A stretch of DNA of 64,000 bases, taken from the NCBI GenBank assembly GCA_043821645.1, contig JBDRCO010000001.1, forward strand, positions 1-64,000, written 5' to 3'. Positions 14,972 through 45,318 of the stretch are shown here, piece by piece (the first letter of the stretch is position 1; the number at the start of each line of letters is the position of its first letter). The notes under the pieces are model-generated. The model had not been told where the DNA came from. It was given only the letters and a program-made list of their open reading frames with translations, and searched no databases. This stretch comes from Pseudomonadota bacterium. GTDB taxonomy: Bacteria; Myxococcota; JACRCW01; JAFGSX01. Both the position numbers and the translations under genes were made by a program.

Positions 14972-15394
14972 ATGACAGAGGAGCAGAGCACCACCTTGCA
15001 CCCCACCGTGGCGGCGCTGGCCCGGGACTTCGATCTGACCGATGGACAGTGGAGCGCTCCCGGCGAGCGGTTGGTCGCCCATCACCAGGCCCTGCAAGCC
15101 TGCGGCCCCGAGCTGCGTAACAAGCTCATCACCGACCTGGTGGTGCTGGCCGGGCGCTTCGAGCGCGAGACCGGAGCAGCGGGTCAGACCGCCCTGGCGC
15201 AACTGCTGGCCCTCGCCACTTTGCTGCTTGGCGGGGTGCAGGCCGCGCAGGAGGCCTTCGAGGAGGCGGGTGTCCACACCGCCGAGGCGCGCAAGCTCCT
15301 GGGCGGCGATGGCCTTCGCTTCGAGGACCGCGCGGCGCAGAAACCTGGCCAGGCAGCAGCGTCCCTGCTGGGCATGCTGAAGAAGAACAAATAG
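14972..15394 (+). CDS. Hypothetical all-helical protein (140 aa)
   Basis: GGAGGGAG RBS before ATG 14972; GC3-biased codons; Leu/Ala-rich amphipathic helices. Confidence 0.7.
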   Translation: MTEEQSTTLHPTVAALARDFDLTDGQWSAPGERLVAHHQALQACGPELRNKLITDLVVLAGRFERETGAAGQTALAQLLALATLLLGGVQAAQEAFEEAGVHTAEARKLLGGDGLRFEDRAAQKPGQAAASLLGMLKKNK

Positions 15395-25625: not shown

Positions 25626-26873
25626 TCAGCGCACGCTGGACGCGCCATAAAACTCGACGGGGTCCTGGTTGCCGTCGACGAAGCTGACCAGCAAGGTGCC
25701 GGTGCCCGTGCCCGGGTTGATCAGGAGCACCTCGCCGTTGCCGGTGACCCCGAAAAGGTAGCCCCAGGCCGCGCTCAGACCCCACACGTCGGTGTAGCCC
25801 ATGGGGCCTATCTCGGTCACCACCCCCGTCGTGGGGTTGACCCGCACCAGCAGGTCCTCACCATTGATGGGGTCGCTGAGGTTGGGCGAGGTCATCAGCA
25901 GCGTGCCATCGTCGAGGAAAACGCAGTCTCCCGAGCTGGCGTATGGGCTCAAGGTGGCCAGGGTGGTCAGGCCTCCGGTCTGCCGATTCAGGCGCATCAT
26001 CTTCGAGTCCACACCGTCGCTGTTGCTGATGTGGATGGCCCCGGCACCGTCGATGGCCAGGCCATTGGGAAGAGGGGGCAAGGCGGGGTTGCTGATCTCG
26101 GTCAGGGTGCCGGAGCTCTCGAGGCGGTACACGCTCCAGGCGGTGACCGCGATCAGGTCACCATTGAGGTCCGTGTCGATATCGTACAGGGCCACGTCGA
26201 TCGAGATGCTCGGCAGTGTGACCTCGAGATACAGCGCGGTGCGCGCAAAGGGATCGATGCGATGGCGCTGGTTCGCGGTCACCGCATAGAACTCGCAGGT
26301 CAGGCCCTCGTTGTTGCCGCCGGCGCAGTTCTCGTCGGTGAAAGAGCAGATCTCGGTAGCGCCCGGGTGCACACTCGCGTTCTGATCGTTGCAGTCGTTG
26401 CCGCCGCAGCCGTTGCCCTCGTCGAGGTAGGTGTCTTGGTCCTGGTCGCACGGGTTGGCACCAGCATCCGCCTGGGCAGTGTCCGGCTGGGCCGCGTCGG
26501 GCTGACCCAGATCGGGCTGCGCTGTATCGGGCACGGCGGCGTCCGGTGTGGCAGTGTCCGTTGCAGCAGTGTCTGGCACGGCGGTGTCAGGCGACACTTG
26601 GTCCGGTTGCGTCGTATCTGGCCTGGCCGAGTCGGGCTGCGCGGCGTCGGGCTGGCGGGCGTCCGCCACCCGTGTATCGGCGACCTGGGCGTCCTGCAAC
26701 CACGTATCCGCCACGGCGGCATCCGCGGTCGCCGCGTCGTGTCCGGCGTCGGTGAACACCAGCTGTGCGTCGCCACGATCGCGCCCGGCATCGATGATGG
26801 GCTCGGCCTGCTGGGTCGTCACGAAGTCACAGGCCACCAGGAGCAGCATTCCAGTCCACAACATTGAGCGCAT
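25626..26873 (-). CDS. Lipoprotein with Asp pentapeptide stalk, MopE-related/putative metal-binding motif and C-terminal beta-propeller
   Basis: LVAC lipobox; DQDQDTY...DCNDQNASVHPGATEIC..DENC motif; propeller-like repeats (LVRVNPTTG, VLLINPGTG). Start uncertain among ATGs at 26897/26873/26849. Confidence 0.78.
   Translation of the reverse strand: MRSMLWTGMLLLVACDFVTTQQAEPIIDAGRDRGDAQLVFTDAGHDAATADAAVADTWLQDAQVADTRVADARQPDAAQPDSARPDTTQPDQVSPDTAVPDTAATDTATPDAAVPDTAQPDLGQPDAAQPDTAQADAGANPCDQDQDTYLDEGNGCGGNDCNDQNASVHPGATEICSFTDENCAGGNNEGLTCEFYAVTANQRHRIDPFARTALYLEVTLPSISIDVALYDIDTDLNGDLIAVTAWSVYRLESSGTLTEISNPALPPLPNGLAIDGAGAIHISNSDGVDSKMMRLNRQTGGLTTLATLSPYASSGDCVFLDDGTLLMTSPNLSDPINGEDLLVRVNPTTGVVTEIGPMGYTDVWGLSAAWGYLFGVTGNGEVLLINPGTGTGTLLVSFVDGNQDPVEFYGASSVR
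26466..26738 (-). repeat. 18 tandem Asp-initiated pentapeptides (15-bp period)
   Basis: DAATA DAAVA DTWLQ DAQVA DTRVA DARQP DAAQP DSARP DTTQP DQVSP DTAVP DTAAT DTATP DAAVP DTAQP DLGQP DAAQP DTAQA D. Confidence 0.85.
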
Positions 26874-26977
26874 GCAACAAACCCTCCGCATTCCCATATC
26901 GGGACGCCTACCAGCTTGGTTGGTCGCGGGAAAGCCCTGGATCACGTGACCTGGATCACGTTTTTTTCAAGGAATCC

Positions 26978-29900
26978 TCAGGACCGCGCGCGGCGGCGCC
27001 GCAGGACCAGAAGCACGAGCACGGCGCCGAATCCGGCACTGCCACGCACCGGGTGGCCAGTGCAGCCGCAGCCGTCGGCAGGCGGCTTGTCGACGGTGCT
27101 GGCATCCCGCCTGGCGCCGGCATCGGCCTGGACCTGGCCCCGGTCCACGGCGATGACGTCGACGATCTCGCGGTCGGTGCGCGCAGCATCGGCCACGGCA
27201 CCATCCCGCTGCCCCGCATCGGGCACGGCTGCATCCAGAGTTGCCGCGTCCATCCCGGCTGCGTCCACGGTCCCGGTGTCGGGCCCGGAGCCATCCGTGG
27301 TCCCCGCGTCAAGGCAGCTCGGCAGCGCGATGTGCTCGCAGCTCGAGCCCGTGGCCAGGCACAGATCCGCGGTGCAGGGATCGGAGTCATCGCAGTCGAC
27401 CGCGCTGCTGCCGCAGCAGCTCCCGGGATCGCAGGCGCTGCTGTTGCTGCACACCACGATGGCGCCCTGGCAGGTGGCCTGGTCGTCGCAGTGGTCCGGG
27501 CCGCTGCAGGGGTTGCCATCGTCGCAGTCGCTGCCACTGGCCAAGGCGGTGCCGACGCAAGTGCCCGCGGCGCAGGTGTCGTCCGCAGTGCAGGGATTGC
27601 CATCGTCACAGCTGCCCGCCGCAGGCACGTGGTCGCAGCCGGTGGCCGGCGCGCAGCTGTCGGTGGTGCAGACATTGCTGTCGTCGCAGCTCAGGGTCTG
27701 GCCCACGCAGGCGCCCGCACCGTCGCACTGATCGTTGTCGGTGCAGGCGTTGGCATCGTCGCAGCCCTGGCCTGCGCCGACCAGGGCGGCACCGACGCAG
27801 CTCCCGGCGGCGCACTGGTCGCCGCTGGTGCAGTCGTTGCCGTCGTCACAGCTGGCGGCGTTGGGAACATACTGGCAACCCTGGGCGGGATCGCAGCTGT
27901 CGTCGGTGCACAGGTTGCTGTCGTCGCAGGTCAGCGCCTGGCCCACGCAGGCGCCAGCGCCGTTGCATTGATCGTCGACCGTGCAGGCCGTGCCGTCGTC
28001 GCAGGGCAGGGTGTTGAAGCTGTGCTGGCAGCCCAGACCAGGATCGCAGCTGTCATTGGTGCAGACGTTGGCGTCGTCACAGGTGTTGGGGGCCCCGGCC
28101 ACGCAGACACCCGCCTGGCAGCTGTCGCCGGTCGTGCAGGGATTGCCGTCGTCGCAAGGCCCGTCCTCGGGCACGTTGACGCAGCCGCCCACCTCGCTCT
28201 GCACCAGGAAGGGCACACTGCGGGTGCTTCGATTGCCCAGCCAGTCCACGGCCTCGAGCTCGAGCACATAGGCGCCTAGCGCCCAGCTGCTCAGGTCCAG
28301 GGCCTGACCATTGCTGACCGGGATGGGTGTGCCCCCGCCAGCGGGAACGACGCGCGCGGTGACCTGGGGATCCCCGTCGAGATCCGAGGTGGTCCAGCCC
28401 ACCACGGGGCTCTCGGTGGTGAGGTAGCTGCGCCCCGCCTCGAGTCCGCTGACGCTGATCGCGGGCGCCGTGCCGTCGACCACCACGGTGACGCTCTGCA
28501 CGGTCTCGGTGTTTCCCTTGCGATCCACGCTGTAGAACTCGAGCAGGTGTGCACCCTCGACCTGGAAGTAGAAGGGGCCGTTGGGTAGCCAGTCCCCGCC
28601 GTCCTTGCGGTACTCGCTCGTGGCGACGCCGCTCAGATCGTCCGTCGCCACCAGGCGCAGGATGGTGGTGGGCGACACGTGCAGGGGGCTCCCCGAGACA
28701 TAGGGTCCCAGGAACTCGAGGCCCGTCTGCGGTGGCACCTGGTCGAACTCGCTCATGTCGTAGGTGACCAGCCAGCTTTCGCTGCGCGGACCCGCGGTGG
28801 CGTAATCGGCGATGGCGAGCAGCGGGTTCGGGACGCTGGCGTCGTCCTCGTCGAGCCAGCTGTTGCGCCAGTGCAGCACCTTGCCGTCGCTGAGGCGCAC
28901 CACGCGCAGGATGGGCAGGGCCCCCAGCGCCGGGTCCGCCGCGGTGACGTGGCTCCAGCCGTACTCCACCGTGGCCGTCACCAGAGCCGTGGGATCGTCG
29001 AGGTCCGGCGCGCCCGTCGAGGAGCCGGCCGCCGGCAGGGCATCGATCTCGCCACACTGGGACTCGAAGATGCGCAGGGTGTCGCCCACGTCGTCGCCGT
29101 CGGTGTCGACCAGTGCCAGCAGGTCGCTGATGCTGTCCTTGCCCGGCCTGTCGACTTGAATCTTGTGCACCAGCCAATGGCTGCGGGTGGCGCTGACCAG
29201 GCTGGTCTTGGCGCCACCCAGCTCCTCGCTGTGCTCGAAGCTGACGTCGAGCTCGACGAACTCGCCTTGCAGGCTGGTTGTCATGGCCCAGGAGCCCACA
29301 CCGCAGCTGGCGGGCGCCAGGGTGCCGAAGGGGATGGCCATGGTGCGGGCGATGCTGTCGTCGTTGCGGAAGGTGCCGATGATGGCAAAATCGATGAGCA
29401 GGCCCCAGCGGTTCTCGACGATGCGCGGCTGTCCCGACACGATGCGCAGGTTGCGGGCCTCGCCGTAGCCGATGTTGGCGACGCGCACCGCCAGGTCGAA
29501 GGGCACGCTGGGCTCGACCACGGTGTCGGTCCAGGGGTCGTCGCCCTTGACCTTGCGCGGCAAAAAGTAGTCCAGCACCAGCTCGGGCTGGGGCTTGACC
29601 GTGATGATCTCCTCGTAGGTCTCGATGTTGGCAGCGATGCCCTGCACGCTGTAGTCGATGACCGCCTTCACCTTGTACTGCTGGCCCGCGGGCGAGGCCC
29701 CACCGGCGCCCAGGGTCGGGATCACCAGCCAGTTGATCTGGCCCTTCTGCTCGGGGGCGATGACGCCGGCGCCGGCGAGGCCGCCGCTGACGTTGGACGT
29801 GCTCGCCGTGGTCAAGAAGAACAGGTCGTCGGCGCGGTTGCCGAGCATGTCGAAGAACTGCACCTCGACCGCCAGCTGTTCGAGGGGCGCGTCGAGCAGG

Positions 29901-30079
29901 TTGTTGGTGAGGCCCAGCGAGGCGTCAAAGGCATCGCGCTCGAAACTCAGGCGCTGCGGGATCACCAGCTTGACCCGCACGCACACGGCCTGCTCGGCGC
30001 GGCTAGTCGTGCTCACGGCCAGACCGGCCAGCAGGATCAGCGCCGGTGTCAGGGCGCGCGCCAGGTGTGTCGTCTTCAT
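26978..30079 (-). CDS. Secreted protein with conserved 'VCxxVK..QxLxxERxAF' domain, OmpL47-like Ig domains, Cys-rich repeats and MYXO-CTERM-like sorting tail
   Basis: GAGGTG RBS, ATG 30079 overlapping the upstream stop; Sec signal ending SRA-EQ; ATDDLSGVATSEY...EGAHLLEFYSVDRKGNTE; about 11 CDDGNxCT-type repeats; tail DGCGCT...AVLVLLVLRRRR. Confidence 0.85.
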   Translation of the reverse strand: MKTTHLARALTPALILLAGLAVSTTSRAEQAVCVRVKLVIPQRLSFERDAFDASLGLTNNLLDAPLEQLAVEVQFFDMLGNRADDLFFLTTASTSNVSGGLAGAGVIAPEQKGQINWLVIPTLGAGGASPAGQQYKVKAVIDYSVQGIAANIETYEEIITVKPQPELVLDYFLPRKVKGDDPWTDTVVEPSVPFDLAVRVANIGYGEARNLRIVSGQPRIVENRWGLLIDFAIIGTFRNDDSIARTMAIPFGTLAPASCGVGSWAMTTSLQGEFVELDVSFEHSEELGGAKTSLVSATRSHWLVHKIQVDRPGKDSISDLLALVDTDGDDVGDTLRIFESQCGEIDALPAAGSSTGAPDLDDPTALVTATVEYGWSHVTAADPALGALPILRVVRLSDGKVLHWRNSWLDEDDASVPNPLLAIADYATAGPRSESWLVTYDMSEFDQVPPQTGLEFLGPYVSGSPLHVSPTTILRLVATDDLSGVATSEYRKDGGDWLPNGPFYFQVEGAHLLEFYSVDRKGNTETVQSVTVVVDGTAPAISVSGLEAGRSYLTTESPVVGWTTSDLDGDPQVTARVVPAGGGTPIPVSNGQALDLSSWALGAYVLELEAVDWLGNRSTRSVPFLVQSEVGGCVNVPEDGPCDDGNPCTTGDSCQAGVCVAGAPNTCDDANVCTNDSCDPGLGCQHSFNTLPCDDGTACTVDDQCNGAGACVGQALTCDDSNLCTDDSCDPAQGCQYVPNAASCDDGNDCTSGDQCAAGSCVGAALVGAGQGCDDANACTDNDQCDGAGACVGQTLSCDDSNVCTTDSCAPATGCDHVPAAGSCDDGNPCTADDTCAAGTCVGTALASGSDCDDGNPCSGPDHCDDQATCQGAIVVCSNSSACDPGSCCGSSAVDCDDSDPCTADLCLATGSSCEHIALPSCLDAGTTDGSGPDTGTVDAAGMDAATLDAAVPDAGQRDGAVADAARTDREIVDVIAVDRGQVQADAGARRDASTVDKPPADGCGCTGHPVRGSAGFGAVLVLLVLRRRRARS

Positions 30080-31152
30080 CGTGCACCTCGCTGTCCGTCG
30101 GCTGTCCCGGTCCCTGCACGCTCCAGGCGTTGCCCGTCCTGCACCCAGGCCCGGACACCGCCGTCGAGGTAGCGCACATTGCGGCCCAGGGTCTCGGCCA
30201 GACGGCGAGCCGCCAGGGCTGCGGCCACGTCGTCGGCGCCGTACACCACCAGGTCCTGCCCCAGCTCCGGCCCTGCGCCGGAGAGTTCCGAGGCGGGCAG
30301 GTTGCGGGCGCCAGGCAGATGACCCGCGGCGTAGGCCACGGGCGCTCGCAGATCGAGCAGGGCCAGGGCCGGCTGGCCCCGAGCCAGGGCCAGGGCCAGG
30401 GCATCGGCGTGGATCAATCCCACGCCGCCCTCGCTGCTGCCGCTGCGCACCCAGGGCAAACCGTGCTGCTTCCACAGCGCGAAGCCTCCGCCCAGGATGC
30501 TGATCCGGGCGTAGCCCCGTTCGACCAGCGCGATCGCGGCCTGGGCAGCGGCCCCGGCCTCGCGATCGTCGCTGTACAGCACCACGTCCACGTCGTCGCG
30601 CAACCGCCTGTAGCCCAGTGACGCGGCCGGAGCGGACAGGGCGCCGGTGATGTGGCCCTCGGCAAAAGCCCGGTGTGAGCGCACGTCGACCAGCTGCACG
30701 TTTTCGCCCCTGGCCAGGCGCGCTTGCAGCACCTCGGGTTCGTGCGCGGTCACCTGAGCCGGCAAGGCGGTCGCATCCTGCCGTCGGGAGGCTGCGGCGG
30801 CCTGTACCGCCTCGCTTCCCTGGCGCTCGATCTCCTCGCGGGCGGCGCGCTGCGTGCGCAGGTGCTCCTGGCCGCGTTGCGTGGCCGTCCGAGATAGCGT
30901 GGCGGCCTGGGCCTGGGCCTCGCGAGCGAGGGCAAGGCCTCGCGCCAAGAACTGCGACCTTTCGCTGTCCTGGCTCGCCTGGGCCCGGGTCATGGTTTCC
31001 CGGGCAGCGGCCAGCTGCACCGGAGCGTAGATGGCGGCACCGCTGGCCTCGGCCTGGGCGATGGCGCGCTGCACGGTGAGCTCCGAGGGCTGGCAGGCCC
31101 CCAGCACCAGCAGCGTCACGGCGACAAGCGTCCTGTGCATGAGGGCCCTCAT
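30076..31152 (-). CDS. Lipoprotein with DUF4398-like helical domain and two rhodanese-fold domains lacking the catalytic Cys
   Basis: LGAC lipobox; AEASGAAIYAPVQLAAA; LVDVRS..FAEGHITGA...VVLYSD...LGGGFALW; LLDLRA..YAAGHLPGA...VVYGA...LDGGVRAW. ATGA overlaps at both ends. Confidence 0.85.
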   Translation of the reverse strand: MRALMHRTLVAVTLLVLGACQPSELTVQRAIAQAEASGAAIYAPVQLAAARETMTRAQASQDSERSQFLARGLALAREAQAQAATLSRTATQRGQEHLRTQRAAREEIERQGSEAVQAAAASRRQDATALPAQVTAHEPEVLQARLARGENVQLVDVRSHRAFAEGHITGALSAPAASLGYRRLRDDVDVVLYSDDREAGAAAQAAIALVERGYARISILGGGFALWKQHGLPWVRSGSSEGGVGLIHADALALALARGQPALALLDLRAPVAYAAGHLPGARNLPASELSGAGPELGQDLVVYGADDVAAALAARRLAETLGRNVRYLDGGVRAWVQDGQRLERAGTGTADGQRGAR

Positions 31153-34100
31153 CGCTCGCACGCTCCAGGTGCCGAGCTGCCACCGCCACCACCTCCACCG
31201 CCGCCGCCACCACCGCCACCGCCAAAGCCGCCGCCGCCGCCACCACCTCCACCGCCAGACTGGCTGATGCTGATGACACTGGGCGTGCAGATGGCCGTGA
31301 CGTCGACATAGGTCGAGCACACAGGGCAGCACTGGGCCTCGCCGGCCTCGCAGCCAACCTTGACCTCGAAGCACATGGTGCCGCCGCCAAAGGACGAGGA
31401 CTGCTCGGGAATGTCGGCACTGGCGGAGCCACCGACGGGGAGGCAGGTCTTGTCGAACTTGGTGTAGGCCTTGGTAAAGCTCAGGGCGCCGCCGGTGAAC
31501 TTCTCGAGCACCTGGTTGAGAATCACGTCGGCCGCCTCTTCGCCGAGGCGCTCCACAACGTTGTTGATGTTGTCGGCCAGACCGTCGCCCTCGCAGATGC
31601 CCTGCTCGACCAGGTCTATTGCCTGACCGATGTTACCGGCCGCCTCCTCGGCGCTGCTCTTCAGATCGTCGAGCTTGTCCTTGGCAGCCTTGACGTCGCC
31701 CCAGTCGGCTCCGAAAGCAGCCTGGCCCATGGCGTCGGTGACCTGGTCCCAGGATGGCACACCCAGCTTGCCAAGCAGCTTGTCGAGCTTGCCCACGGCG
31801 GCCTCCTTGAGCTTGTCGACCAGGCCACCCAGGGTGGGCAAGCCTATGCCCGCGGTCATCACTCGGCCGCACTTGCACAGGCCCACGTCGCCGCTCTCGC
31901 GCGAGCGCACGGTGTAGGCTGGTGGCGTCACACCCTCGCCGTTCTCGAAGCCTGGGCAGTTGTAAAAGGTCTGGCGCACCACCGGATTCGGCTCGACGCT
32001 GACCTTGGCCGTGTGACTGCGCACGTCGCCGGTGAACGAGTAGGTGGGACGCCGCTCCCAGGTGCCTGCCGTCGAGCAGTACCACTTCCACTCGAAGTGA
32101 CCGCTGAACAAGAACTCGGTACAGGGCGTTGGAGGCGGTGAGCCGTGGGTCTTGAGGTAGACGGTGAAAGGGATCACCAGGCGGCTGCGAGCCGGGAGCT
32201 CGGGGATGCGGGTGAAGGCAAACTGCACGTCCAGGTAGTGGTCCTGGACGAAGCCTGCCAGCTCGACGTCCCAGGCCGAGACCAGGCCCATGTTGATCAG
32301 CTCGAGCTGCCCGTTCTTGGTCTCGCCAGGCACCATGTCGAAGTTCTGCAGCGCCGGCACGATCTCGATGACAGGCACCGGCACCTGGGTCTCGAAGGTG
32401 GTCTCGATGAGCACGTCGTACTGGTCCTCGACCGAGGTCGGCGTCACCGACCACTCGACGTCGACCACGCTCTCCATCAGCGCGATCTCGAGGTAGGCCG
32501 TCTGGTCCGCCTCGACCAGCAGCAGGCCGCTGTCGGCGTCGGCGCCGTCGACCCCGGCCACCCGGAAGCCGGCCTTCTGCACCCGGTAGCTGTAGCGACC
32601 GCCGGGAATGTCGACGAAGTGCACCAGCCCGTCCGAGGCGCTGATCTGCACGAAGGGCCCGATGAGCGTGGGCAGCTCCTGGTTGATGAGGGTGACCTGG
32701 GTGCCCTCGACCGGCCGCCCAGGATCGACCTCGGCATACAGGAAGTTGGTGATCTTGACGTCGGCACTGCCCACGGCGTTGGTGGTCACCTTGACCGACA
32801 TGTTGAAAGGCACGTCCTGGAAGTTGTGGCTGGTCAGGGTCAGCGCCGCGTTGACCACGCCGCTGGGCTGGTCATCTGGCGGCAGCAGCAGGATGTCGAA
32901 GCTGGTGGCGTCACCTGGCGCCAGGGTGCCAAGGTCCAGCCCGGTGGGCACCAGCACCCAGGGCACGCTGGCAGGGCGCACGATCTGCACGTTCTCCCAG
33001 GCGTCGTAGCCCACGTTGCGCACCTGCACAGTGCGCGTGAGGCTCCCCCCGGCGAGCATGCTCAGGTCGAGGTAGCGCGGCGCGATGAGCGGGGCCGGGC
33101 TGGCCGCGAACAGGTCCACCTCGAGCCGGGACAGGCGGGTCGCGCCCTGGTCGTTGGTCAGATTGAGCTCGAAGCTGGCCTGGTCGGCCGCGATGAGCTC
33201 GGCGCTCACGCGCACGCCCAGGGACACACTCTGGCGCGGAGCCAGCTGCCCGGGCAAGGCCCCCTCGAGCACCGCGGTCACGCCGTCGCCGCTGTCCGCG
33301 TCGGCAATGGCCAGGTTGAGACCCGTGATCGCGGTCTCGCCGGTGTTGCGCAGCACGAAGCCCACCACGTAGCTCGTGTTCTTGCTCAGGCGCAGCGCAA
33401 AGCGCCCCGGGGTCAGCTCGAGGCCGTGCACCACGAAGGTGGCGTCTTCCTCGTCGACCACCACCGCCGGGTGCGTGGCGCCGACGCTGAACTGCCCGGC
33501 CTGGGTGTAGCCCGGGAAGAAGGGATAGGTGTACAGGCCGCTGCTGTCGGTGCGCGCGTAGTACACCTGCTTGAAGCCGCCGTTGCGCAGGCTGATCTTG
33601 ACCACGACGCTGGCCGCGGGGTTGCCGGTGGCGGTCTCGGTGGCCACGCCGCTGATGAGCACCAGCTCGCCCTGGTTGTACTCGGCCTTGTCCGTGGTCG
33701 CGGTGACCAGGTAGGGCGGAGGCACCACGTTGACGCCGGTGCTCTTGACGAAGCCCGGCTGGTGCTGGGCATCGGCCTGGCCCCAGGCGTGGTGGATCTG
33801 CAGTGCCTCGACCTCGAGCAAGATGTTGTCCGGTGTGTCGTTGGGGATGACGAGCTGCGACGGCGCGAAGGTCACCGCGGCGCCCGGCGCCAGGGTCACG
33901 ATACGGGTGCCACCCGGCTGCACCTGGCCGATGAGCTGGTCGTCGACCCAGGCCGACACCAGGACGCTGAGATCGGGGTGGCGGAAGCGCACCTGCAGCT
34001 CGTCCGACGGGTTGCTGCCGCGCTGGCTGACCAGCTGCAGGTTGGCCGAGCCCCGGTTGGTGAGCTTGAGGTGGACCTCGGCCTGGGTGCCGCGCATCAG

Positions 34101-37100
34101 GCTCTCGTGCACAGCCTCGATGGTGGCGCCGGCCGGCGCTCGCGACGACAGCTCGAAGCGGGTGCGGTACACGGCGCTGGCCCAGGCTGTCCCGGGCAGG
34201 GGCAGCACCAGCTCGAGTTGGTTGCCCTCGTCGACCAGCTCGGGGTGGCTGTACACCACCTCGGTGGTCGCGCTGGCGTCCAGGGCCGGCACGGTGATGG
34301 TCTGGGTGCTCTCGCGCCGCCACCACTCGGTGTCCTCGGAGTCGAACAGGCTGAGCTCTGCGGGCCCGAAGTCCTGTTCGGCGAGGTCGTCGTTGGCGAT
34401 CTGCAGCAGCACCTGGTCGAAGGTGCCGCGGGTGAGCTGCGGCGAGCCCAGGGCGTCGGCCTTGCCGTAGTCCGCCAGGGTCACCACGAAGGGATACAGC
34501 ACCAGGCTGCGCGCCAGGCCCTCCTGACCCGCGGCGTCGAGGGTGTGGATGTCCAGCTGCACCCGGTATGGCGCCCGGGCGGGCTCCCCGACGACGGTCT
34601 GCAGACCGGTGCCGGTATAGACCTCGACGCCATCGCGCAGCACCCTGAAGCTCGCCGCGTCCAGCTCCTCGGCCGCGGGCCAGCTCAGGGTCACCTGGCT
34701 GTCCGTGACCTCGGCATGCGCCCAGGCCACGGGCCCTGGCGGAAGGTCGACCACGAAGTTCACGGTGGCGGTGGCTTCGTTGCCCGCGAGGTCGCGGGCG
34801 GTGGCCTGCACGGTCCAGTTGCCGTCGACGGTGATGGGCGTGCCCGCCACGTAGGGCTGGCCGCCCAGGATCATCACCACCTCGAACAGGTGGTCGTCGG
34901 TGGCCACGGCCGTGGGCGCCGGCGGCGAGGTGTAGCGCTGGCCCTCGCTGACGCCGTTGATGCTCACCACGGGCGCCGTCAGGTCGATGGTGAAATCCAC
35001 GGATCGCTGCGAAGTGTGGCCACCAAGGTCCACCGCGTCGACGACGAGGCTGTGGCTGCCCTCGGCGCTGACGACGGTGCCCGAGGTGAAGGCCGCGCCG
35101 TCCAGGGCCGCCGACCAGGTGTCCAGGGTGATGTCGGTGACCGTGATGACGGGGGTCAGGCTGGCGTTGCTGTGCTGGCCGTGGACCACGCCGCTGACCT
35201 CGATGACGGGGCCGTCGCGGTCGAACAGGGTCTGCGCCTCGTTGGACGGAGCGCTCACCAGGCCCACCGCATCCCGCGCCACCACCACGTAGTAGTAGCT
35301 GCCGTCCGAGGGCGGCAGGTCCAGGGTCGAGGTGGTCGCGAGGTCCGTGACCACTGGCGTGTGGCCAGCGACGCTGCCCCCAAAGCTGGCGTCGAGGCGG
35401 AACAGGTCGTAGCTCGCCGCGGCCTCGCCTGCCGGTGCGGTCCAACTCAGCTGCACCTGCGCGCTGATCACCGTCGCCGTCAGACCCGTGGGGGCACCTG
35501 GGGGCGTCTGGTCCGAAAAGGCGCTGGCGCTGGGCGAGGGGCCGCTCCTGTTGCCCGCCGCATCCATGGCCACCACGGCGTAGAACCAGTCCCCCTCGGT
35601 GGGGGGCAGGTCGCTGTGAGTGCGCTGCTGCAGCCCGGTGACGACGGGGGTCAGCCCGACCACGCTGGTGATGGCGGTATCCGAGCGGTACAGGTCGTAG
35701 CCTGCGGCGGGCTCGCTGGTAGGGGCGGGCCAGCCCACATCGATGGCGCCCTGGGTGCCCGCGACCACGGAGATGCTGGCCGGTGCATCCGGTGCCTGGG
35801 TGTCGATGGTCAGCGTGTCGCCCGCGGTGATGGTCGTTCCGGTGTTGCCCGCCGCGTCCGTCATGGACAGCGCGAACAGGCCATCGCCGTCGCCGGTGGT
35901 GCCGGTGACGAGCAGGCTCGCGGTCCAGATCTCGTCGCTGCCGGTCGCGGTGAGGGCGATGGCGGAGCCTCCCAGCGGCGTGAGGTTGAGGTCGGGCGCG
36001 CTGCCTAGGGCCTCGCTGGCGGTGACCATGATCTGCACGTTGCCGGCCTTGACCGGGGTGGCAGGGGCGGTGGCAATGGAGGCCGTGGGGCGCTTGCCGT
36101 CGACGGCCAGACTGGCGCCCGAGCTCAGGGTGGTGCCGACGTTGCCCAGCACGTCCTCGCCACTGAAGGCGAAGGCCGAGCTGCCCGTGGCCATGCCATC
36201 GCTGACCAGGATGCTGCCGGTGTAGATCTTGTCGTCGCCGACGTCCTGGATCAGGGCCAGGCTCTGGGCGCTGCCCTGGGGCGGTGTCCAGGACAGGATG
36301 GGCAGGGCGCCCAGGCTCTCGCTGGCGGTCAGGGTCACCTGCCAGGTGCCTATGCCGCGGGTGCCGCTGCCCTCGACCGAGACGGCGGCGGTGGGCGGTC
36401 CGGCGTCGGCCAGGGCGCTGACCTCCGCCGCTGGCAGGCTCTGCTTGTTGACCACGTCGAGCCAGACCACGGTGTACCAGAAGATGCCGTCGCTGCCCGG
36501 GACGTCCTCGTGGGTGAGCTCGGTGACCGTGGCCACCGGCGTGGCGGTACCGACATCGATGCCGGCGCTGCTCGCGCGAAAAATCTGATAGTCCTGCGGA
36601 CTGCCGCTGGCCGGGGGCGCCCAGGTCAGGACCACGCGACCACCGGTGAGGGAGCTGGCTGCCAGGTTCTGCACCGGACCCGCGGCCGGGCTGGCGGTGG
36701 GGGTGGCGCTGGCCTGCACCGAGTTGCCGCTGAACAGGCCTTCGCTGTCCAGGGCGCGCACCACGTAGAAGTAGGGTTGATCATTGGTCAGGAACAGGTC
36801 CAGGGCGCTCGTGCCCACGATGCCACTGGCCACGTCGGTGTACGGACCGCCGCTCGTGGTCGAGCGCGCGATGGTGTAGCTGGTGACATCGCAGCTGGCG
36901 CTCGTCGCCCAGCTCAAGCTCACGTACTGGTCGTGAGCCGTCGCGGTCAGGCTCGCGGGTGCGGCCGGGTTGCCGGTCAGGTGCGTGCGCACGGCCTCGA
37001 CGTTGCTCGGCAGCCCCAGGTTCCCTGCGAGATCGTAAGGGCTGACCTCGAACAGGTAGTCGGTGCAGGCGGTGAGGCCTGTGACCCGGTGGGCGGCTCC

Positions 37101-40100
37101 TGATACCAGCTCGGGCGCCTGCGGCACGCCGCCGACGGAGCGGTGCACCTCGTAGCCCGTGGTGTCGACGGAGCTGCTGGCGGTCCAGCTCAGGTCCACG
37201 GTGGTCTCGGCAACCGCGTCCACGCTGAGCACCACGGGCGCCGGCGCCGTGGTGTCGGCCCTGAACTGCACGGTCTTGAGGGCGACCTGCGGCGTCCCGT
37301 CGACCACGCTGCTGGCGGTGACGAACTGCGGCGTGGTGGTAGACAGCAGCACCTGGGTGTAGGTGCCGTCGCCCACGTCGAGGACGCTGCCCTGCAAGGT
37401 GCCGCCGGTGACCTGGATGACCACGCTGTGGCCGGCGCCGGCCTTGTTGCCGAAGCCGTCGCGCGGGGTCACGGTGATGGTGCTGCTGGTGAAGCCATTG
37501 GCCTCGATGGACAGGGGCGAGGCGGTGATCTCGGTGCGGCCGGCGTTGACCGCGGCCGGCTGCACGTCGAGCACGACCTGGCCGCGCATGAGGTAGTTCT
37601 CGCCGCTCACCGCGCGCAGGGTCTGCTGTCCGGCCGTGCGCAGGGTCACCGCCTGCACGAAGCTGTGTACCCCGAGATCTGCGCCGGAATAGGTGTACAT
37701 GGGGGGCAAGGTCGCGGTGCCGTCCGACGACGAGAACAGCGCCGTGCCGGCGTAGGTGGTCAGGGTCGCGTCGAAGGGGTCCTGGGCCGTGACCGTGACG
37801 TCGAAGGGCACACCGGCCACGGGCGCGGCGGTGCCCGGCACCAGCGCGAAGTGCGGCAACTCCTCGAGCTTGACCTGCACGTTGTTGGCGTTGACGTAGA
37901 CGTACAGCCCGCCCAGGCCGCCCAGGTCCATGCCCTCGAGGTTGGCGAAGTCGCCGGAGCAACCGGCGCTACAGGTCATGATGGTCCAGGTGTCGCCGAC
38001 GCTGGGTGTGTAGCCGTCGCCCAGGGTCACGGCGAGAGTGCCGGCCACCGTGCTGGCGCCGGTGACCGCCAGGCGATCGTACTGGCTGCCCACGGTCAGG
38101 CCCACCAGCTCCACCTCGAGGCGGCTGGTCGAGGACATGGGCGTGGCGCCGGTGATGGTCAGGGTGCCGGGTGAGGTGCCAGGGCGCACGATGCCACTCT
38201 GGGCGAGGGCCACGGCCGAGCTGTCGATGGTGCCACGGCCAGTGAGCACCCCCCCCGCCAGGTTGGTGAAGCTGCTTCCGCTCAGCGTGGCAGTGGCCGT
38301 GTCCACCTGCAGCGTGCCGCTGTTCCGGTGCACCGCGCCGCTGCGACCGAGCGTGCAGTCCTGCTGGGTCACGATGCGCCCCTGGTTGTCGAGCGCGGCC
38401 ACGACGTTGCGATGTGCGCCGCCTCCCGAGATCTGGAGCGTGCCCGCGTTGACCAGACCGGGGTCGGGCACGGTCAAGGTGACCCCGTACCAGCCGTGGT
38501 TGGTGCCGAGTTGCAGCAGGCCGCCGTTGACGAAACCTGCCGGGGCCGAGATCGCGGCGTGCTGGACGCTGCCGTTTCCGTAGAGGTAGACGCTCTGCGC
38601 AGCGGAGACCGCGCCTTCGAGCGCGCCACTGCCATTGAGCATAAAGGCAGATGGAGCAGGGCTCAGAAGACTGAGGTCCGAGTGGATCAGCCGCGGCATC
38701 CCGCGCAGGTTACTGACGTCCGGCGTGCCGGTGATCTGGCCACCGCGGAGAAGGAAGTGGCCGTTGCTGTAGTCGAAGATGGCTGTTCCTTCGAAATCGA
38801 GGCTGCCCGCCTGCTGCTCGAAGGTCGTGCCCGCGCCGTTGACCGTGAGTGTGATGCCACTGGCGATGGACCAGGTCCCGCTGTTCAGGTAGCTGGCGCC
38901 GGTCTTCGTCGACGTGGTGTTCGAATTCAGGTCGATCAGGCCACTGTTGGTGATGCTGCCGTGCAGACCCGCGTCGTTGTTGACCAGGATCGAGCCGGAG
39001 TTGAGGATGCTGGCGTTGATGTTGCGATGCGCACCGCCGCCGCCGATCACCAGGCTGGCGCGGTTCTCCAGCGCGCCGCCGTTCACGGTCAGCGTGACCC
39101 CGTACCAGCCATGATTGGTCCCCAGTTGCAGCACGCCCTCGTTGACCAGTCCAGCGGGCACGGTCACCGCCGCATGCTGCACGCTGCCGTTGCCGTAGAT
39201 GTACACGGCCTGGTCCAGCGAGATGTCTCCGATGAGCGTCCCGATGCCGTTGAGCACGAAGGCCGCATGGTTGGGGCTCTGGATGGCGAGGTCCGAGTGA
39301 ATCAACCGCGCCATGCCACGCAGATTGGCGACATCGGGCGTCCCCGTGATCGCGCCACCGCTGAACACGAACTGGCCGTTGCTGTAGTTGAAGGTGGCTG
39401 TCCCCTCGAAGTCCAGGCTGCCCGCCTGCTGCTCGAAGGTCGTGTCCGCGCCGTTGACCGCGAGCGTGATGCCACTGGCGATGGACCAGGTTCCGCTGTT
39501 CAGGTAGCTGGCGCCGGTCTTCGTCGACGTGGTGTTCGAATTCAGGTCGATCAGGCCACTGTTGGTGATGCTGCCGTGCAGACCCGTGTCGTTGTTGACC
39601 TGGATCGAGCCGGAGTTGAGGATGCTGGCGTTGATGTTGCGATGCGCACCGCCGCCGCCGATCACCAGGCTGGCGCGGTTTTCCAGCGCTCCGCCGTTCA
39701 CGGTCAGCGTGACCCCGTACCAACCATGATTGGTCCCCAGTTGCAGCATGCCCTCGTTGACCAGTCCGGCGGGCACGGTCACAGCCGCGTGCTGCACGCT
39801 GTCGTTGCCGTAGATATAGAGGGACTGGTTCGCGGAGATATTCCCGGCCAGCGTCGAAGCACCATTGATCACGAAGGCCGCCGCGTTGGGGCTCTGGATC
39901 GTGAGGTCAGAGTGGATCAGCCGCGGCATGCCCCTGAGGTTGGCGGCGTCCGGCGTACCGCTGAGCACACCCCCGCTGAACCGGAAGTGGCCATTGCTGT
40001 AGTCCAGACGTGCCGTGCCTTCGAACTCGAGGCGACCGCCGGCCTGCGAGAATTCGGTACCGCTGCCGTTGATGGTGAGGACCACGCCACTGGCAATGGA

Positions 40101-41315
40101 CCACAGCCAGATGTTGCTGTAGCGGGCGCCGGCCTTGCTCATGGTGACGTTGGCGTTGAGGTCGACGGTGCCCTGGTTCGCGAGGCTGCCACCGAGGCTC
40201 GCGTCGTTGTTCACCGTGAGGATCCCGCTGTTGACGAGGTCCGCGTTGACGTTGCGGTGGGCACCGCCGCTGTTCAGCGTCAGGCTCCCCGCGTTGTCGA
40301 TGCCAGCACCCGGGACGTTGAGGGTCACCCCGTACCAGCCGTGATTGGTGCCGGCCGCGATCGCGCCGTCATTGCGGAAGGCCCGGGTCGCGTTGAGGGT
40401 GGCGTGCTGCACCGAGCCGTCGCCCCAGACATGCAGCGCCTGGCTGGCCGAGAGGTCGCCGGTGAAAGCGCAGACCCCGAGGAAACGGAAGGTGGCCGCG
40501 TCGGGCGCGCTGATAGCCAGATTGGCACCGATGAGGGTGACCATGCCTTGGCCGTTCGCCGGGTTGGCCGTGCCGGTGACGGTGCCACCGTCGAGGGCGA
40601 ACGCGCCGTTGCGGAACTGGATGGCACCGGTCCCTGCCAGCGCGATACCGCCGCCGGCCTGGTTGAACTGGGTCGAAGCGCCCGAGAAGTTCACGACGAC
40701 GCCCGTGGCCACCTGAATGGAACCGCTGTTCCGGTACACAGCGGAGGCCAGCGGTAGGGTGGTGCTGCCCGCGAAGCTCATCGTTCCTTGATTGTCGAAG
40801 CCGCCGCTCAGGGTGCTCGAGGCACCGATCTGCACCGTTCCGCGATTGAGGAGCTCGGCGTTGAGGTTGCGCGACGCACCCCCAGCAGCGCTCAGCACCA
40901 GGCTGCCGTCGTTGGTCAGACCGCCTGTGCTCACTGTCAAGGTCGGGCTGTACCAGCTGTGGCTCGTCGACATCAGGATCTGGCCACTGTTGCTGACAGC
41001 GCCCTGGGAGGTCAGGGTGATGTGGCCGCTGCCCGTTGCCTGCAGGTGCAGGGTTGCGGCCGAGGCCGCGACCTGGATGCCACCAACGGTGGCGCTCGCG
41101 TGAAGCGATACCGTGTACACCGCCCCGGTGACATCGATGATGGCCGTGTCCCCGGCACCGGGCACCGCGCCCCCCGACCACTTGCTGCCATCCGTCCACT
41201 CGCCGCTCACCGGCGCCAGCCAGCGGACATCGGCGGCCAGGGCTGTTCCTGACAGAGCGAGCAGCAGCGAGATGAGGACGCAGGAGCGCAGAAGCTGCAG
41301 CGGCAGGCGAGACAT
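31149..41315 (-). CDS. Giant (3388 aa) secreted adhesin-like protein: beta-helix repeats, invasin/Ig-like, FnIII, carboxypeptidase-regulatory-like domains, Cys/Gly-rich C-terminus
   Basis: Signal peptide ending ALA-AD; W..GSKWSGGAVP start; five ~205-aa repeats; autochaperone-like cap (PGTSPGTLT...YDRLAVTG); FnIII units (LSWTA...GYEV); WSVTPTSVEDQYDV.IETTFETQVP domain; G10-F-G15 tail; no C-terminal beta-barrel or TM anchor. Confidence 0.92.
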   Translation of the reverse strand: MSRLPLQLLRSCVLISLLLALSGTALAADVRWLAPVSGEWTDGSKWSGGAVPGAGDTAIIDVTGAVYTVSLHASATVGGIQVAASAATLHLQATGSGHITLTSQGAVSNSGQILMSTSHSWYSPTLTVSTGGLTNDGSLVLSAAGGASRNLNAELLNRGTVQIGASSTLSGGFDNQGTMSFAGSTTLPLASAVYRNSGSIQVATGVVVNFSGASTQFNQAGGGIALAGTGAIQFRNGAFALDGGTVTGTANPANGQGMVTLIGANLAISAPDAATFRFLGVCAFTGDLSASQALHVWGDGSVQHATLNATRAFRNDGAIAAGTNHGWYGVTLNVPGAGIDNAGSLTLNSGGAHRNVNADLVNSGILTVNNDASLGGSLANQGTVDLNANVTMSKAGARYSNIWLWSIASGVVLTINGSGTEFSQAGGRLEFEGTARLDYSNGHFRFSGGVLSGTPDAANLRGMPRLIHSDLTIQSPNAAAFVINGASTLAGNISANQSLYIYGNDSVQHAAVTVPAGLVNEGMLQLGTNHGWYGVTLTVNGGALENRASLVIGGGGAHRNINASILNSGSIQVNNDTGLHGSITNSGLIDLNSNTTSTKTGASYLNSGTWSIASGITLAVNGADTTFEQQAGSLDFEGTATFNYSNGQFVFSGGAITGTPDVANLRGMARLIHSDLAIQSPNHAAFVLNGIGTLIGDISLDQAVYIYGNGSVQHAAVTVPAGLVNEGVLQLGTNHGWYGVTLTVNGGALENRASLVIGGGGAHRNINASILNSGSILVNNDAGLHGSITNSGLIDLNSNTTSTKTGASYLNSGTWSIASGITLTVNGAGTTFEQQAGSLDFEGTAIFDYSNGHFLLRGGQITGTPDVSNLRGMPRLIHSDLSLLSPAPSAFMLNGSGALEGAVSAAQSVYLYGNGSVQHAAISAPAGFVNGGLLQLGTNHGWYGVTLTVPDPGLVNAGTLQISGGGAHRNVVAALDNQGRIVTQQDCTLGRSGAVHRNSGTLQVDTATATLSGSSFTNLAGGVLTGRGTIDSSAVALAQSGIVRPGTSPGTLTITGATPMSSTSRLEVELVGLTVGSQYDRLAVTGASTVAGTLAVTLGDGYTPSVGDTWTIMTCSAGCSGDFANLEGMDLGGLGGLYVYVNANNVQVKLEELPHFALVPGTAAPVAGVPFDVTVTAQDPFDATLTTYAGTALFSSSDGTATLPPMYTYSGADLGVHSFVQAVTLRTAGQQTLRAVSGENYLMRGQVVLDVQPAAVNAGRTEITASPLSIEANGFTSSTITVTPRDGFGNKAGAGHSVVIQVTGGTLQGSVLDVGDGTYTQVLLSTTTPQFVTASSVVDGTPQVALKTVQFRADTTAPAPVVLSVDAVAETTVDLSWTASSSVDTTGYEVHRSVGGVPQAPELVSGAAHRVTGLTACTDYLFEVSPYDLAGNLGLPSNVEAVRTHLTGNPAAPASLTATAHDQYVSLSWATSASCDVTSYTIARSTTSGGPYTDVASGIVGTSALDLFLTNDQPYFYVVRALDSEGLFSGNSVQASATPTASPAAGPVQNLAASSLTGGRVVLTWAPPASGSPQDYQIFRASSAGIDVGTATPVATVTELTHEDVPGSDGIFWYTVVWLDVVNKQSLPAAEVSALADAGPPTAAVSVEGSGTRGIGTWQVTLTASESLGALPILSWTPPQGSAQSLALIQDVGDDKIYTGSILVSDGMATGSSAFAFSGEDVLGNVGTTLSSGASLAVDGKRPTASIATAPATPVKAGNVQIMVTASEALGSAPDLNLTPLGGSAIALTATGSDEIWTASLLVTGTTGDGDGLFALSMTDAAGNTGTTITAGDTLTIDTQAPDAPASISVVAGTQGAIDVGWPAPTSEPAAGYDLYRSDTAITSVVGLTPVVTGLQQRTHSDLPPTEGDWFYAVVAMDAAGNRSGPSPSASAFSDQTPPGAPTGLTATVISAQVQLSWTAPAGEAAASYDLFRLDASFGGSVAGHTPVVTDLATTSTLDLPPSDGSYYYVVVARDAVGLVSAPSNEAQTLFDRDGPVIEVSGVVHGQHSNASLTPVITVTDITLDTWSAALDGAAFTSGTVVSAEGSHSLVVDAVDLGGHTSQRSVDFTIDLTAPVVSINGVSEGQRYTSPPAPTAVATDDHLFEVVMILGGQPYVAGTPITVDGNWTVQATARDLAGNEATATVNFVVDLPPGPVAWAHAEVTDSQVTLSWPAAEELDAASFRVLRDGVEVYTGTGLQTVVGEPARAPYRVQLDIHTLDAAGQEGLARSLVLYPFVVTLADYGKADALGSPQLTRGTFDQVLLQIANDDLAEQDFGPAELSLFDSEDTEWWRRESTQTITVPALDASATTEVVYSHPELVDEGNQLELVLPLPGTAWASAVYRTRFELSSRAPAGATIEAVHESLMRGTQAEVHLKLTNRGSANLQLVSQRGSNPSDELQVRFRHPDLSVLVSAWVDDQLIGQVQPGGTRIVTLAPGAAVTFAPSQLVIPNDTPDNILLEVEALQIHHAWGQADAQHQPGFVKSTGVNVVPPPYLVTATTDKAEYNQGELVLISGVATETATGNPAASVVVKISLRNGGFKQVYYARTDSSGLYTYPFFPGYTQAGQFSVGATHPAVVVDEEDATFVVHGLELTPGRFALRLSKNTSYVVGFVLRNTGETAITGLNLAIADADSGDGVTAVLEGALPGQLAPRQSVSLGVRVSAELIAADQASFELNLTNDQGATRLSRLEVDLFAASPAPLIAPRYLDLSMLAGGSLTRTVQVRNVGYDAWENVQIVRPASVPWVLVPTGLDLGTLAPGDATSFDILLLPPDDQPSGVVNAALTLTSHNFQDVPFNMSVKVTTNAVGSADVKITNFLYAEVDPGRPVEGTQVTLINQELPTLIGPFVQISASDGLVHFVDIPGGRYSYRVQKAGFRVAGVDGADADSGLLLVEADQTAYLEIALMESVVDVEWSVTPTSVEDQYDVLIETTFETQVPVPVIEIVPALQNFDMVPGETKNGQLELINMGLVSAWDVELAGFVQDHYLDVQFAFTRIPELPARSRLVIPFTVYLKTHGSPPPTPCTEFLFSGHFEWKWYCSTAGTWERRPTYSFTGDVRSHTAKVSVEPNPVVRQTFYNCPGFENGEGVTPPAYTVRSRESGDVGLCKCGRVMTAGIGLPTLGGLVDKLKEAAVGKLDKLLGKLGVPSWDQVTDAMGQAAFGADWGDVKAAKDKLDDLKSSAEEAAGNIGQAIDLVEQGICEGDGLADNINNVVERLGEEAADVILNQVLEKFTGGALSFTKAYTKFDKTCLPVGGSASADIPEQSSSFGGGTMCFEVKVGCEAGEAQCCPVCSTYVDVTAICTPSVISISQSGGGGGGGGGGFGGGGGGGGGGGGGGGSSAPGACER
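38801..39815 (-). repeat. Near-identical ~400-bp direct repeat pair at 615-bp offset inside the giant gene
   Basis: 38801-39200 aligns to 39416-39815 with only scattered substitutions by eye; the ORF track gives near-identical shadow ORFs 38914-39114 and 39529-39729. Confidence 0.9.
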
Positions 41316-41528
41316 GGAGCCCCCTTCGCGGCGACGCTACCCACCGCGAATCCCGCAGAGGACTCGTGACAGATCGCGTGCCCAAGGCACAGGACGCGAG
41401 ATGATCGATCAGTCCTGAAGTCTGGCAGACCAGGTATGGCAGTCAAGGCGCCCGGGCACGAAGGCCAGGATTGTGCCTATCCTGCAATGGGCCCTCATCG
41501 CGCGACCACCGTCGCAGGGGAACGCACC

Positions 41529-43859: not shown

Positions 43860-43891
43860 GCCAACCTCGCCGAAGCAGGTGTGAATCGCCG

Positions 43892-45226: not shown

Positions 45227-45318
45227 CCTGTCCTCCCGTGCCGCGTGGTTGGCTCGTCCACGCACGATCATTCGCTGAATTTGTGAGCTCACCTTGCCAG
45301 CGCCCGGGGGCCGTGGCC

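Follow-up and report, generated by a model that had tools for sequence, protein, structure and literature searches.

A three-gene locus encoding an anchorless giant protein, a rhodanese-like lipoprotein and a MYXO-CTERM protein, possibly a two-chain form of a giant surface fibre

The operon and its three products

A 64-kb stretch of DNA from a bacterium placed in Myxococcota (positions 1 to 64,000 of contig JBDRCO010000001.1; the whole stretch is called the window below) contains three minus-strand open reading frames (ORFs), which are tightly packed and fill positions 26978-41315 (Table 1). They encode a giant protein (P0001), a rhodanese-like lipoprotein (P0002) and a MYXO-CTERM protein (P0003), and the C-terminal part of the giant and the N-terminal part of P0003 carry two domains, here called WS and P3N, that are fused in one chain in many other proteins. 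On the basis of these fusions and of the Cys residues conserved at both ends, we consider that the operon may encode a two-chain form of a giant surface fibre. The G+C content at third codon positions (GC3; 0.90, 0.85 and 0.90 for P0001, P0002 and P0003, respectively) supports all three reading frames, and the N-terminal sequences of the three products predict that all of them are exported. An earlier note, made from the letters of this DNA alone, claimed that the genes are joined by ATGA stop/start overlaps. The overlap between P0002 and P0003 is present at 30079-30076. That between P0001 and P0002 is likewise present at 31152-31149, but it is lost if P0002 starts at 31140; besides the ATG at 31152, which gives the overlap, another ATG lies 12 nt later with GAGGG 5 nt upstream, and with its better-placed GAGGG it may be the actual start, in which case the first junction would be an 8-nt gap. 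P0298 in the protein collection is this 354-aa form of P0002.

Table 1. Genes and domains of the operon, with positions in the window
Feature	Positions	Strand	Evidence
Giant gene P0001, 3388 aa, anchorless	31149..41315	-	ORF and translation; GC3; Pfam Invasin_D3, fn3, Big_13
Predicted signal peptide of the giant, residues 1-27, ...GTALA/ADV	41235..41315	-	Read from sequence
About 4.5 tandem repeats of about 205 aa, residues 97-1021	38253..41027	-	Self-phmmer, iE (independent E-value) 1e-32 to 4e-138
Immunoglobulin-like (Ig-like) array: Invasin_D3 1260-1353, fn3 1359-1430, Big_13 2163-2190	34746..37538	-	Pfam
WS connector, residues 2892-3061, WSVTPT...EDQY...FETQVP	32133..32642	-	WS hidden Markov model (HMM), 2.7e-57
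Cys-bearing beta region, long helical hairpin and Cys-rich beta region, residues 3062-3353	31257..32132	-	Secondary structure of model
G10-F-G15 hinge and SSAPGACER tail, C3386 codon 31158-31160	31152..31256	-	Translation; GCC-type DNA repeat; predicted local distance difference test (pLDDT) <50
Rhodanese-like lipoprotein gene P0002, 358 aa	30076..31152	-	ORF, Pfam, NCBIfam; alternative start 31140
Lipobox Cys20, sole Cys of P0002	31093..31095	-	Sequence
Rhodanese domain 1, residues ~137-237, active-site position Ser (VVLYSDDRE)	30442..30744	-	NCBIfam, Pfam; loop read
Rhodanese domain 2, residues 255-338, active-site position Gly (LVVYGADD)	30139..30390	-	Pfam; loop read
MYXO-CTERM protein gene P0003, 1033 aa	26978..30079	-	ORF and translation; GC3
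P3N domain, residues 29-440, all-beta, invariant C33 (codon 29981-29983)	28760..29995	-	Homologue search, alignment, AlphaFold2 (AF2)
OmpL47-type beta-barrel domain, residues 469-534	28478..28675	-	NCBIfam NF047446, 64.4 bits against a cut-off of 40
Cys-rich repeats, residues 633-922	27314..28183	-	Pfam Dicty_CTDC, E 1.2e-16; Cys positions
MYXO-CTERM tail: GCGC, hydrophobic helix, RRRRARS	26981..27073	-	TIGR03382; sequence

The earlier note described the giant as having no barrel, transmembrane segment or sorting tail, and this description stands: Pfam and NCBIfam scans found no beta-barrel, two-partner secretion (TPS) domain, type I secretion signal, retention family or sorting family in it, and an in-house hydrophobicity heuristic found no hydrophobic helix at its C-terminus. 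P0001 thus has neither the barrel translocator nor the TPS domain by which autotransporters, two-partner systems and inverse autotransporters are recognised. The translation also reproduces exactly the ending G10-F-G15-SSAPGACER with its terminal Cys that had been reported, and this tail contains no Lys. Pfam and NCBIfam searches with the C-terminal 500 residues found no family; residues 3062-3353 were matched over their full length only in the close relatives P0004-P0011 and P0067, with no real match in the PDB or the ESM Atlas, and a PDB sequence search with the tail gave only spurious matches to artificial Gly-Ser linkers of single-chain variable fragment (scFv) chimeras. In a structural model of this part (model residue 1 corresponding to residue 2880; mean pLDDT 70.9, of mixed quality), model residues 100-280 (2979-3159) form PapD/ASH-like beta-sandwiches with pLDDT 88-97, followed by a long helical hairpin, a Cys-rich beta region and a disordered Gly tail. 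The WSVTPT...FETQVP stretch has pLDDT <50, a value that may reflect a model cut through the preceding domain. The only fold matches of this model are PapD/ASH-like.

P0003 carries the MYXO-CTERM signature (TIGR03382, 22.4 bits against a cut-off of 15.85; sequence DGCGCTGHPVRGSAGFGAVLVLLVLRRRRARS), while its TIGR03901 score of 16.3 bits is below the cut-off of 20. As had been noted, it has the only sorting tail, and its mature N-terminus begins with an almost immediate Cys (...SRA/EQAVCVRVK). The P3N domain that starts here was modelled by AF2 as all-beta (pLDDT 91.9, predicted template modelling score 0.86), and Foldseek returned generic matches to tandem Ig-like, PapD/ASH, integrin-leg and pilin structures with TMq ≤0.22. 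A catalytic role for P3N was considered and dropped, because the fold search gave neither an enzyme nor a thioester-domain fold, and neither P3N nor the C-terminus of the giant looks enzyme-like in the models. An exhaustive search for relatives of P3N gave 2604 representatives of 50% identity clusters at E≤1e-3 and 1709 at E≤1e-30. For neither P3N nor WS, its usual partner, do Pfam and NCBIfam contain a model, and no PDB relative of either could be detected by sequence (the P3N profile gave 0 matches against the PDB); the ESM Atlas placed P3N among unnamed clusters only, with DUF11 at 0.84 as a weak lead.

P0002 matches the rhodanese family PF00581 in two stretches (E 3.3e-29). A lipoprotein signal peptide of bacteria ends in a lipobox of the pattern [LVI][ASTVI][GAS]C, and LLVLGAC of P0002, matched by eye, fits it. 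The earlier note called P0002 a Cys-less rhodanese lipoprotein, and it has in fact no Cys beyond C20 of this lipobox, so that the catalytic Cys is missing. Judged from its residues, P0002 has the rhodanese fold but cannot be a sulfurtransferase by the usual mechanism.

WS and P3N in single chains and in neighbouring genes

A search with the last 509 residues of the giant gave 49 proteins, of which only eight (P0004-P0011) matched about 90% of the query. The remaining relatives matched residues 2892-3054 only, and this common domain, bearing WSVTPT...FETxVP, is what we call WS. In 18 of the 49, local phmmer found P3N downstream of WS in the same chain, at a distance of 70-450 residues. The closest relatives of both halves encoded in the window are P0010, P0011 and P0067, permuted forms in which P3N is at the N-terminus, and a module of WS, mid region, Gly tract and Cys is at the C-terminus, of one chain. 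We then mapped both domains by HMM in 102 P3N proteins longer than 1808 aa. P3N was internal in 71 of them and was preceded by WS in every one of these 71, an internal P3N lacking WS being found in none; in the other 31, P3N was N-terminal and WS was absent. Among the 148 best representatives of P3N (the query and P0011 excluded), the six proteins with an internal P3N include five with WS upstream. The consistency of 71 in 71 is evidence of fusion and argues that the two proteins of the window are parts of one functional module. Both domains of the WS-P3N supradomain family, defined here by WS followed by P3N within one chain or across two neighbouring genes, are present in the window, WS being recognised by its HMM at P0001 2892-3061.

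The Cys residues at the two ends are conserved, as a check of both terminal Cys revealed. The Cys of P3N (C33 in P0003) is invariant in 83 of 83 aligned domains, together with Q42, E47, R48, F51, N59 and some twenty other positions, within the local consensus A-x-[ED]-x-V-C-A-x-V-K-I-E-I-x-Q-E-L-T-L. The invariant Gln lies nine residues past the Cys, and Lys lies four residues past it in 66/83. In 59/83 sequences this Cys is the only one of the domain and therefore has no partner inside the domain. On the other side, the C-terminal 509 residues of the giant contain eleven conserved Cys, and the Cys of the tail is kept in 9/9 close relatives (e.g. GVCTR, GWCTK, GYCTK, GMCER, GGACQ and APCAP). 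The WS giants of other phyla that end soon after WS have a Gly-rich stretch and then a Cys in 12 of 15 cases, e.g. ...GGGGTSTPIKMKGKKCVYVPKGGTQCD. Two other roles for the junction Cys were considered and rejected: an autoproteolytic G/C junction, because in the split form the Cys is 4 to 5 residues away from the mature N-terminus, and a lipobox at the P3N Cys, because its -1 position is V, L or I in 70/83 sequences.

We also surveyed the gene neighbourhoods of P3N, using one genome per species. At least 577 P3N loci were found, and the counts given below refer to the best 80 of them (L001-L080), which belong to Myxococcota (including Cystobacter and Archangium), Beta-, Gamma- and Deltaproteobacteria-type lineages, Elusimicrobia, Nitrospirae, Verrucomicrobia and Lentisphaerae. 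WS was located by its HMM on the same strand within 10 kb, and accessory genes by Pfam and then by jackhmmer over the 80 loci. WS was detected in 25/80 loci (21 upstream and 4 downstream). Of the 43 loci whose upstream flank reaches 9 kb or more, 20 have WS upstream; of the 33 loci in which both flanks are this long, called complete below, 19 have it on one side or the other. A WS giant directly abuts the P3N gene only in L001, L050 and L061. The neighbourhood of WS and P3N is thus recurrent, not universal, and the statement of the earlier note that the two domains are fused in some proteins and encoded by adjacent genes in others is borne out by the 71 long proteins with an internal P3N and by the 25 loci with WS within 10 kb. 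Equal lengths of the longest contigs (52208, 131906 and 39317) suggest that three close relatives of the giant and three relatives of P0003 lie on shared contigs.

The other genes found repeatedly near P3N encode rhodanese-like proteins (40/80 loci), RHS repeat toxins (31/80), transglutaminase-like proteins (26/80) and S13 peptidases (8/80). Accessory matches lie on the strand of P3N in 112 of 114 cases, 20 of the 25 WS loci have RHS, and only 3 of the 33 complete loci lack all five gene types, WS giants included; P3N genes standing alone are seen, e.g., in L020, L035 and L047. In the rhodanese-like proteins linked to P3N, the active-site position is occupied by D, N, G or S, with the exception of five Elusimicrobia loci that keep YCG..C, and this nearly complete replacement of the active-site Cys identifies the family as a pseudo-enzyme. 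Their gene is directly upstream of P3N in these five Elusimicrobia loci and directly downstream in other loci. On the basis of this recurrent and often translationally coupled position, an accessory role can be argued. In five loci (L005, L012, L015, L017 and L018), an S13 (PBP4-like) peptidase gene directly precedes P3N and the rhodanese gene follows it.

Transglutaminase-like genes are often found directly upstream of P3N and after a rhodanese-like gene (L073:8116-12124 and about 15 other loci, such as L029, L034 and L071), and GDCT, YHNW.E and D, i.e. an intact Cys-His-Asp triad, are kept in at least 85% of 25 sequences. RHS follows WS either in the same chain, as in L073, L050, L016 and L032, or in a gene of its own that encodes a signal peptide, and then come Ank, Sel1 or SMI1-like immunity genes. 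Separate RHS toxins lie between a WS giant with a Gly/Cys tail and the P3N gene at L009:4709-9430, L021:3288-8477, L024:5258-9229 and L060:4955-9466, and the toxin ends found in related loci include Tox-HNH-EHHH, Ntox21 and phospholipase A2-like domains. Glutaredoxin-like genes occur in 7/80 loci (L021:2651-3226, L054, L056, L060, L068, L048 and L013); at least some of their products combine a zinc-ribbon-like CxxC pair at the N-terminus with a membrane helix and a thioredoxin-fold domain with CxxC, and such membrane-anchored products may hint at thiol chemistry in the family. A scan of the three proteins and 39 other ORFs found no RHS repeat, toxin, immunity, transglutaminase-like or S13 gene in the window, and the window is a stripped-down member of this locus type, whose wider context of toxin and enzyme genes the earlier note did not notice.

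A possible two-chain fibre and competing explanations

We favour, at a probability of about 0.45, the explanation that the operon specifies a giant surface fibre in two chains, which would be joined between the connector tail of the giant and P3N and locked by C3386 and C33. In many bacteria, a single chain contains, in this order, a long Ig-like stalk, a connector composed of a CarboxypepD_reg-like domain, the WS beta-sandwich and a hinge rich in Gly, and a base, P3N, which is itself a run of PapD/ASH-like beta-sandwiches. In the window, the gene would have been broken at the hinge, leaving two chains. The giant chain would be exported by Sec with no anchor of its own, and the base chain P0003, with P3N at its mature N-terminus, would be fixed to the outer membrane through lipidation, myxosortase cleavage and type II secretion. 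We infer that joining would take place in the periplasm before type II secretion, the connector tail docking on P3N; since the MYXO-CTERM route exports folded proteins, a giant docked in this manner could travel along. The joint would probably be locked by a disulfide between C3386 and C33, both of which have no evident partner. The rhodanese-like lipoprotein might serve as a non-catalytic accessory, acting on one of the Cys-bearing ends as adaptor or holdase. The earlier note proposed for it a role as chaperone or assembly factor; what the loci show is a conserved, non-catalytic association.

The interpretation as a split protein, which was proposed in the earlier note, is partly supported: fused homologues exist, the two domains recur as neighbours, and the Cys residues are conserved, none of these three checks refuting it. 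The asymmetry of anchors within the clade also counts in its favour, for tails of the GCGC type end the P3N proteins P0003, P0053, P0054, P0055, P0057, P0201 and P0202, and no giant of the clade ends in such a tail. We count likewise for it the absence of the junction Cys in P0028 and P0051, both of which are continuous chains.

Several observations weigh against the two-chain fibre. The junction Cys is kept in 20/22 fused proteins (...GGVCAxVKIxIxQE), in which no rejoining is needed, and 13 of 18 countable fused proteins have an odd Cys total over the span that runs from WS through P3N, although the limits of this span are arbitrary; the junction Cys may thus be unpaired even in a continuous chain, or be used between molecules, and may serve something besides, or other than, a disulfide between the two halves. 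The permuted relatives P0010, P0011 and P0067 have no anchor at all, and head-to-tail assembly fits them better than anchoring does. P3N comes right after the signal peptide in 142 of the 148 best representatives, and a C-terminal helix with a basic tail was detected, by a crude test, in only 18 of 168 proteins with N-terminal P3N. WS is missing within 10 kb in 14 of the 33 complete loci, and most related loci have a transglutaminase-like, S13 or RHS gene, all three of which the window lacks. An HMM of the linker built from fused proteins matches neither protein of the window, and the mid region of the giant is clade-specific. A search with P0002 retrieved nothing but its own 354-aa form from a saturated candidate list, which is uninformative on relatives.

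A modular, self-assembling fibre would account better than a two-chain fibre for the permuted relatives, which lack an anchor, and for the apparently unpaired Cys at the junction. Its units would be linked head to tail, each attaching through its C-terminal Gly/Cys tail to the N-terminal P3N of its neighbour. The permuted relatives indeed carry these two elements at opposite ends. Joining in many lineages would be performed by the transglutaminase-like enzyme, whose gene is mostly placed directly upstream of P3N and whose triad is conserved, or by the S13 enzyme, with RHS toxins as optional cargo, and the form in the window would have neither enzyme nor toxin and would rely on Cys chemistry. 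Consistent with such ligation, P3N has its invariant Gln and frequent Lys close to the Cys, and giants of other phyla have Lys-rich tails, e.g. KMKGKKC. Donor-strand and sortase-type pilins are among the fold matches, but with TM of only ~0.2, and these matches are generic Ig-like ones. We regard this explanation as unlikely for the operon, in which the enzyme and RHS genes are absent and the tail of the giant has no Lys. Furthermore, transglutaminase-like domains beside RHS toxins are read as inactive peptide binders in the part of PMC3482391 dealing with them, although the triad is intact in the present loci. A still broader proposal, that WS, P3N, the dead rhodanese and the transglutaminase-like or S13 enzyme constitute a widespread, undescribed Gram-negative way of building fibres by end-to-end joining of Sec-exported pieces, appears decidedly improbable to us. 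In that scheme, the joints would be the Gly/Cys tails and the Cys-x8-Gln strand of P3N, the pieces would be stalk, base and, in the majority of lineages, RHS cargo, and the window would represent a minimal form without enzyme or toxin on a MYXO-CTERM anchor.

It is also rather doubtful that the genes are merely co-transcribed and encode independent surface proteins, with P3N as a general stalk-base and the order of WS and P3N fixed in the absence of contact. The predominance of N-terminal P3N among the best representatives, the lone P3N genes and the make-up of both halves, rows of Ig-like sandwiches in which neither an enzyme-like nor a lock-and-key fold is evident, would all be expected from independence. 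Order alone, however, hardly explains why WS precedes every internal P3N of the long proteins, and invariant Cys with no evident partner at both broken ends, an anchorless giant whose operon partner is anchored, and accessory genes recurring on the same strand also speak against it. Self-anchoring of the giant is very improbable. Its terminal G-A-C-E-R would then be lipidated like GCGC, or bound to the outer membrane, and P0003 would be irrelevant; the Cys does lie 2-3 residues from the end after a disordered Gly tract, just as the MYXO-CTERM Cys follows a disordered region, but the tail has neither the transmembrane helix nor the Arg cluster that the described route uses. Similar Gly/Cys tails occur in Betaproteobacteria and Gammaproteobacteria, whereas MYXO-CTERM is characterised as specific to myxobacteria in the relevant part of PMC11980579.

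Known systems, and other observations in the window and beyond

TraA of Myxococcus xanthus has a stalk-plus-anchor layout like that of P0003 and a PA14-like head. P0003 resembles such MYXO-CTERM proteins in GCGC, the hydrophobic helix, the Arg tail and the preceding Cys-rich repeats, and differs from TraA in its head, made of P3N and the OmpL47 barrel, and in the two genes that directly precede its own in the operon, those of the anchorless 3388-aa chain and of the rhodanese-like lipoprotein. The steps set out in the part of PMC11980579 on the MYXO-CTERM route are Sec export, folding while the C-terminal helix keeps the protein in the inner membrane, lipidation of the Cys, cleavage by myxosortase (MrtX) and type II secretion of the folded protein. 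By analogy, P0003 would be processed by myxosortase and displayed via type II secretion; the window ORFs scanned included neither mrtX nor a type II secretion gene. Literature searches found no two-chain MYXO-CTERM complex of this kind, and full-text searches found no published description of the system of WS, P3N and rhodanese.

Among giant Ig-repeat adhesins of Gram-negative bacteria, P0001 shares Invasin_D3, fn3, Big_13 and a long repetitive N-terminal region, but it has no barrel, TPS domain, type I signal or retention module, so that another gene product seems to take over its retention. How giant adhesins without barrel and anchor are retained on diderm outer membranes is poorly understood, and this operon, with an anchorless chain, an anchored chain and fused single-chain proteins elsewhere, is a natural test of retention in trans. 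In the sortase-assembled pili of Gram-positive bacteria, Ig-like units are linked through the C-terminal tail of one and the N-terminal domain of the next. The joining considered here would be analogous, and BcpA is among the fold matches (TM ~0.2), but there is no sortase or LPXTG; the candidates in related loci are the transglutaminase-like and S13 enzymes, and the window has neither. P0002 has in common with the class of catalytically inactive rhodanese homology domains the fold and the replaced active-site Cys, and what sets it apart is its predicted nature as a periplasmic lipoprotein, the presence of two of these domains besides a helical N-terminal part, and the link to P3N in half of the surveyed loci.

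The related WS loci, with RHS shells, toxin ends and immunity genes, correspond to the Sec-exported RHS toxins with Ig-like stalks reported by Zhang et al. (2012, PMC3482391), where the part concerning these toxins makes no mention of P3N, WS or the rhodanese partner. The window differs from an RHS polymorphic toxin system in having no RHS/YD repeats, core, toxin or immunity gene. WS and P3N accompanied by inactive rhodaneses, intact transglutaminase-like enzymes and RHS toxins represent a locus type extending from Myxococcota to Elusimicrobiota. If the pieces were covalently joined, this would be a new system of protein ligation and a new route of toxin display, and if the end-to-end scheme were true, diderms would have an equivalent of the pili built by sortases, and RHS toxins a new platform for their delivery.

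Upstream of the giant gene, a plus-strand gene (41436-42500, GC3 0.86, with only a sub-threshold DUF5683 match) diverges across a 120-bp spacer, and the operon therefore begins at the giant gene. The minus-strand ORF opposite to it (41409-42464, GC3 0.72) is probably non-coding. Beyond it, at 42507-45292 on the minus strand, are a multihaem cytochrome gene (43895-45292, PF13447 E 1.4e-28) and, after it in another frame, an Alginate_exp-type outer-membrane barrel, for which only the last ~460 codons of the ORF 42507-45089 are coding. These look like a porin-cytochrome pair, to judge from the sequence matches. The barrel was considered as a member of the operon and rejected, because it lies beyond the divergent gene in a separate unit. 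Scans for promoters and terminators at both ends of the operon gave nothing usable. A palindrome (ACGTGA-CCTGGA-TCACGT, 26944-26961) is located between the stop of P0003 and the next gene, which encodes a lipoprotein with a MopE motif and DUF6923 (25626-26873). This palindrome is not the operon terminator, because the A-run precedes it on the coding strand, and it may be a putative binding site. CarboxypepD_reg domains are present in two more secreted proteins of the window, 12604-15006 (-), which has an EGF-like Cys motif in addition, and 56297-57805 (-).

Concerning relatives of P0003, the precomputed Pfam lists of the closest ones, P0053, P0201 and P0202, start with PF27332, which is absent from the scan matches of P0003. 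One Atlas neighbour cluster is half eukaryotic, and a protein of 4170 aa from the green alga Edaphochlamys debaryana (P0293) has WS at residues 2735-2869 and P3N at residues 3615-3917.

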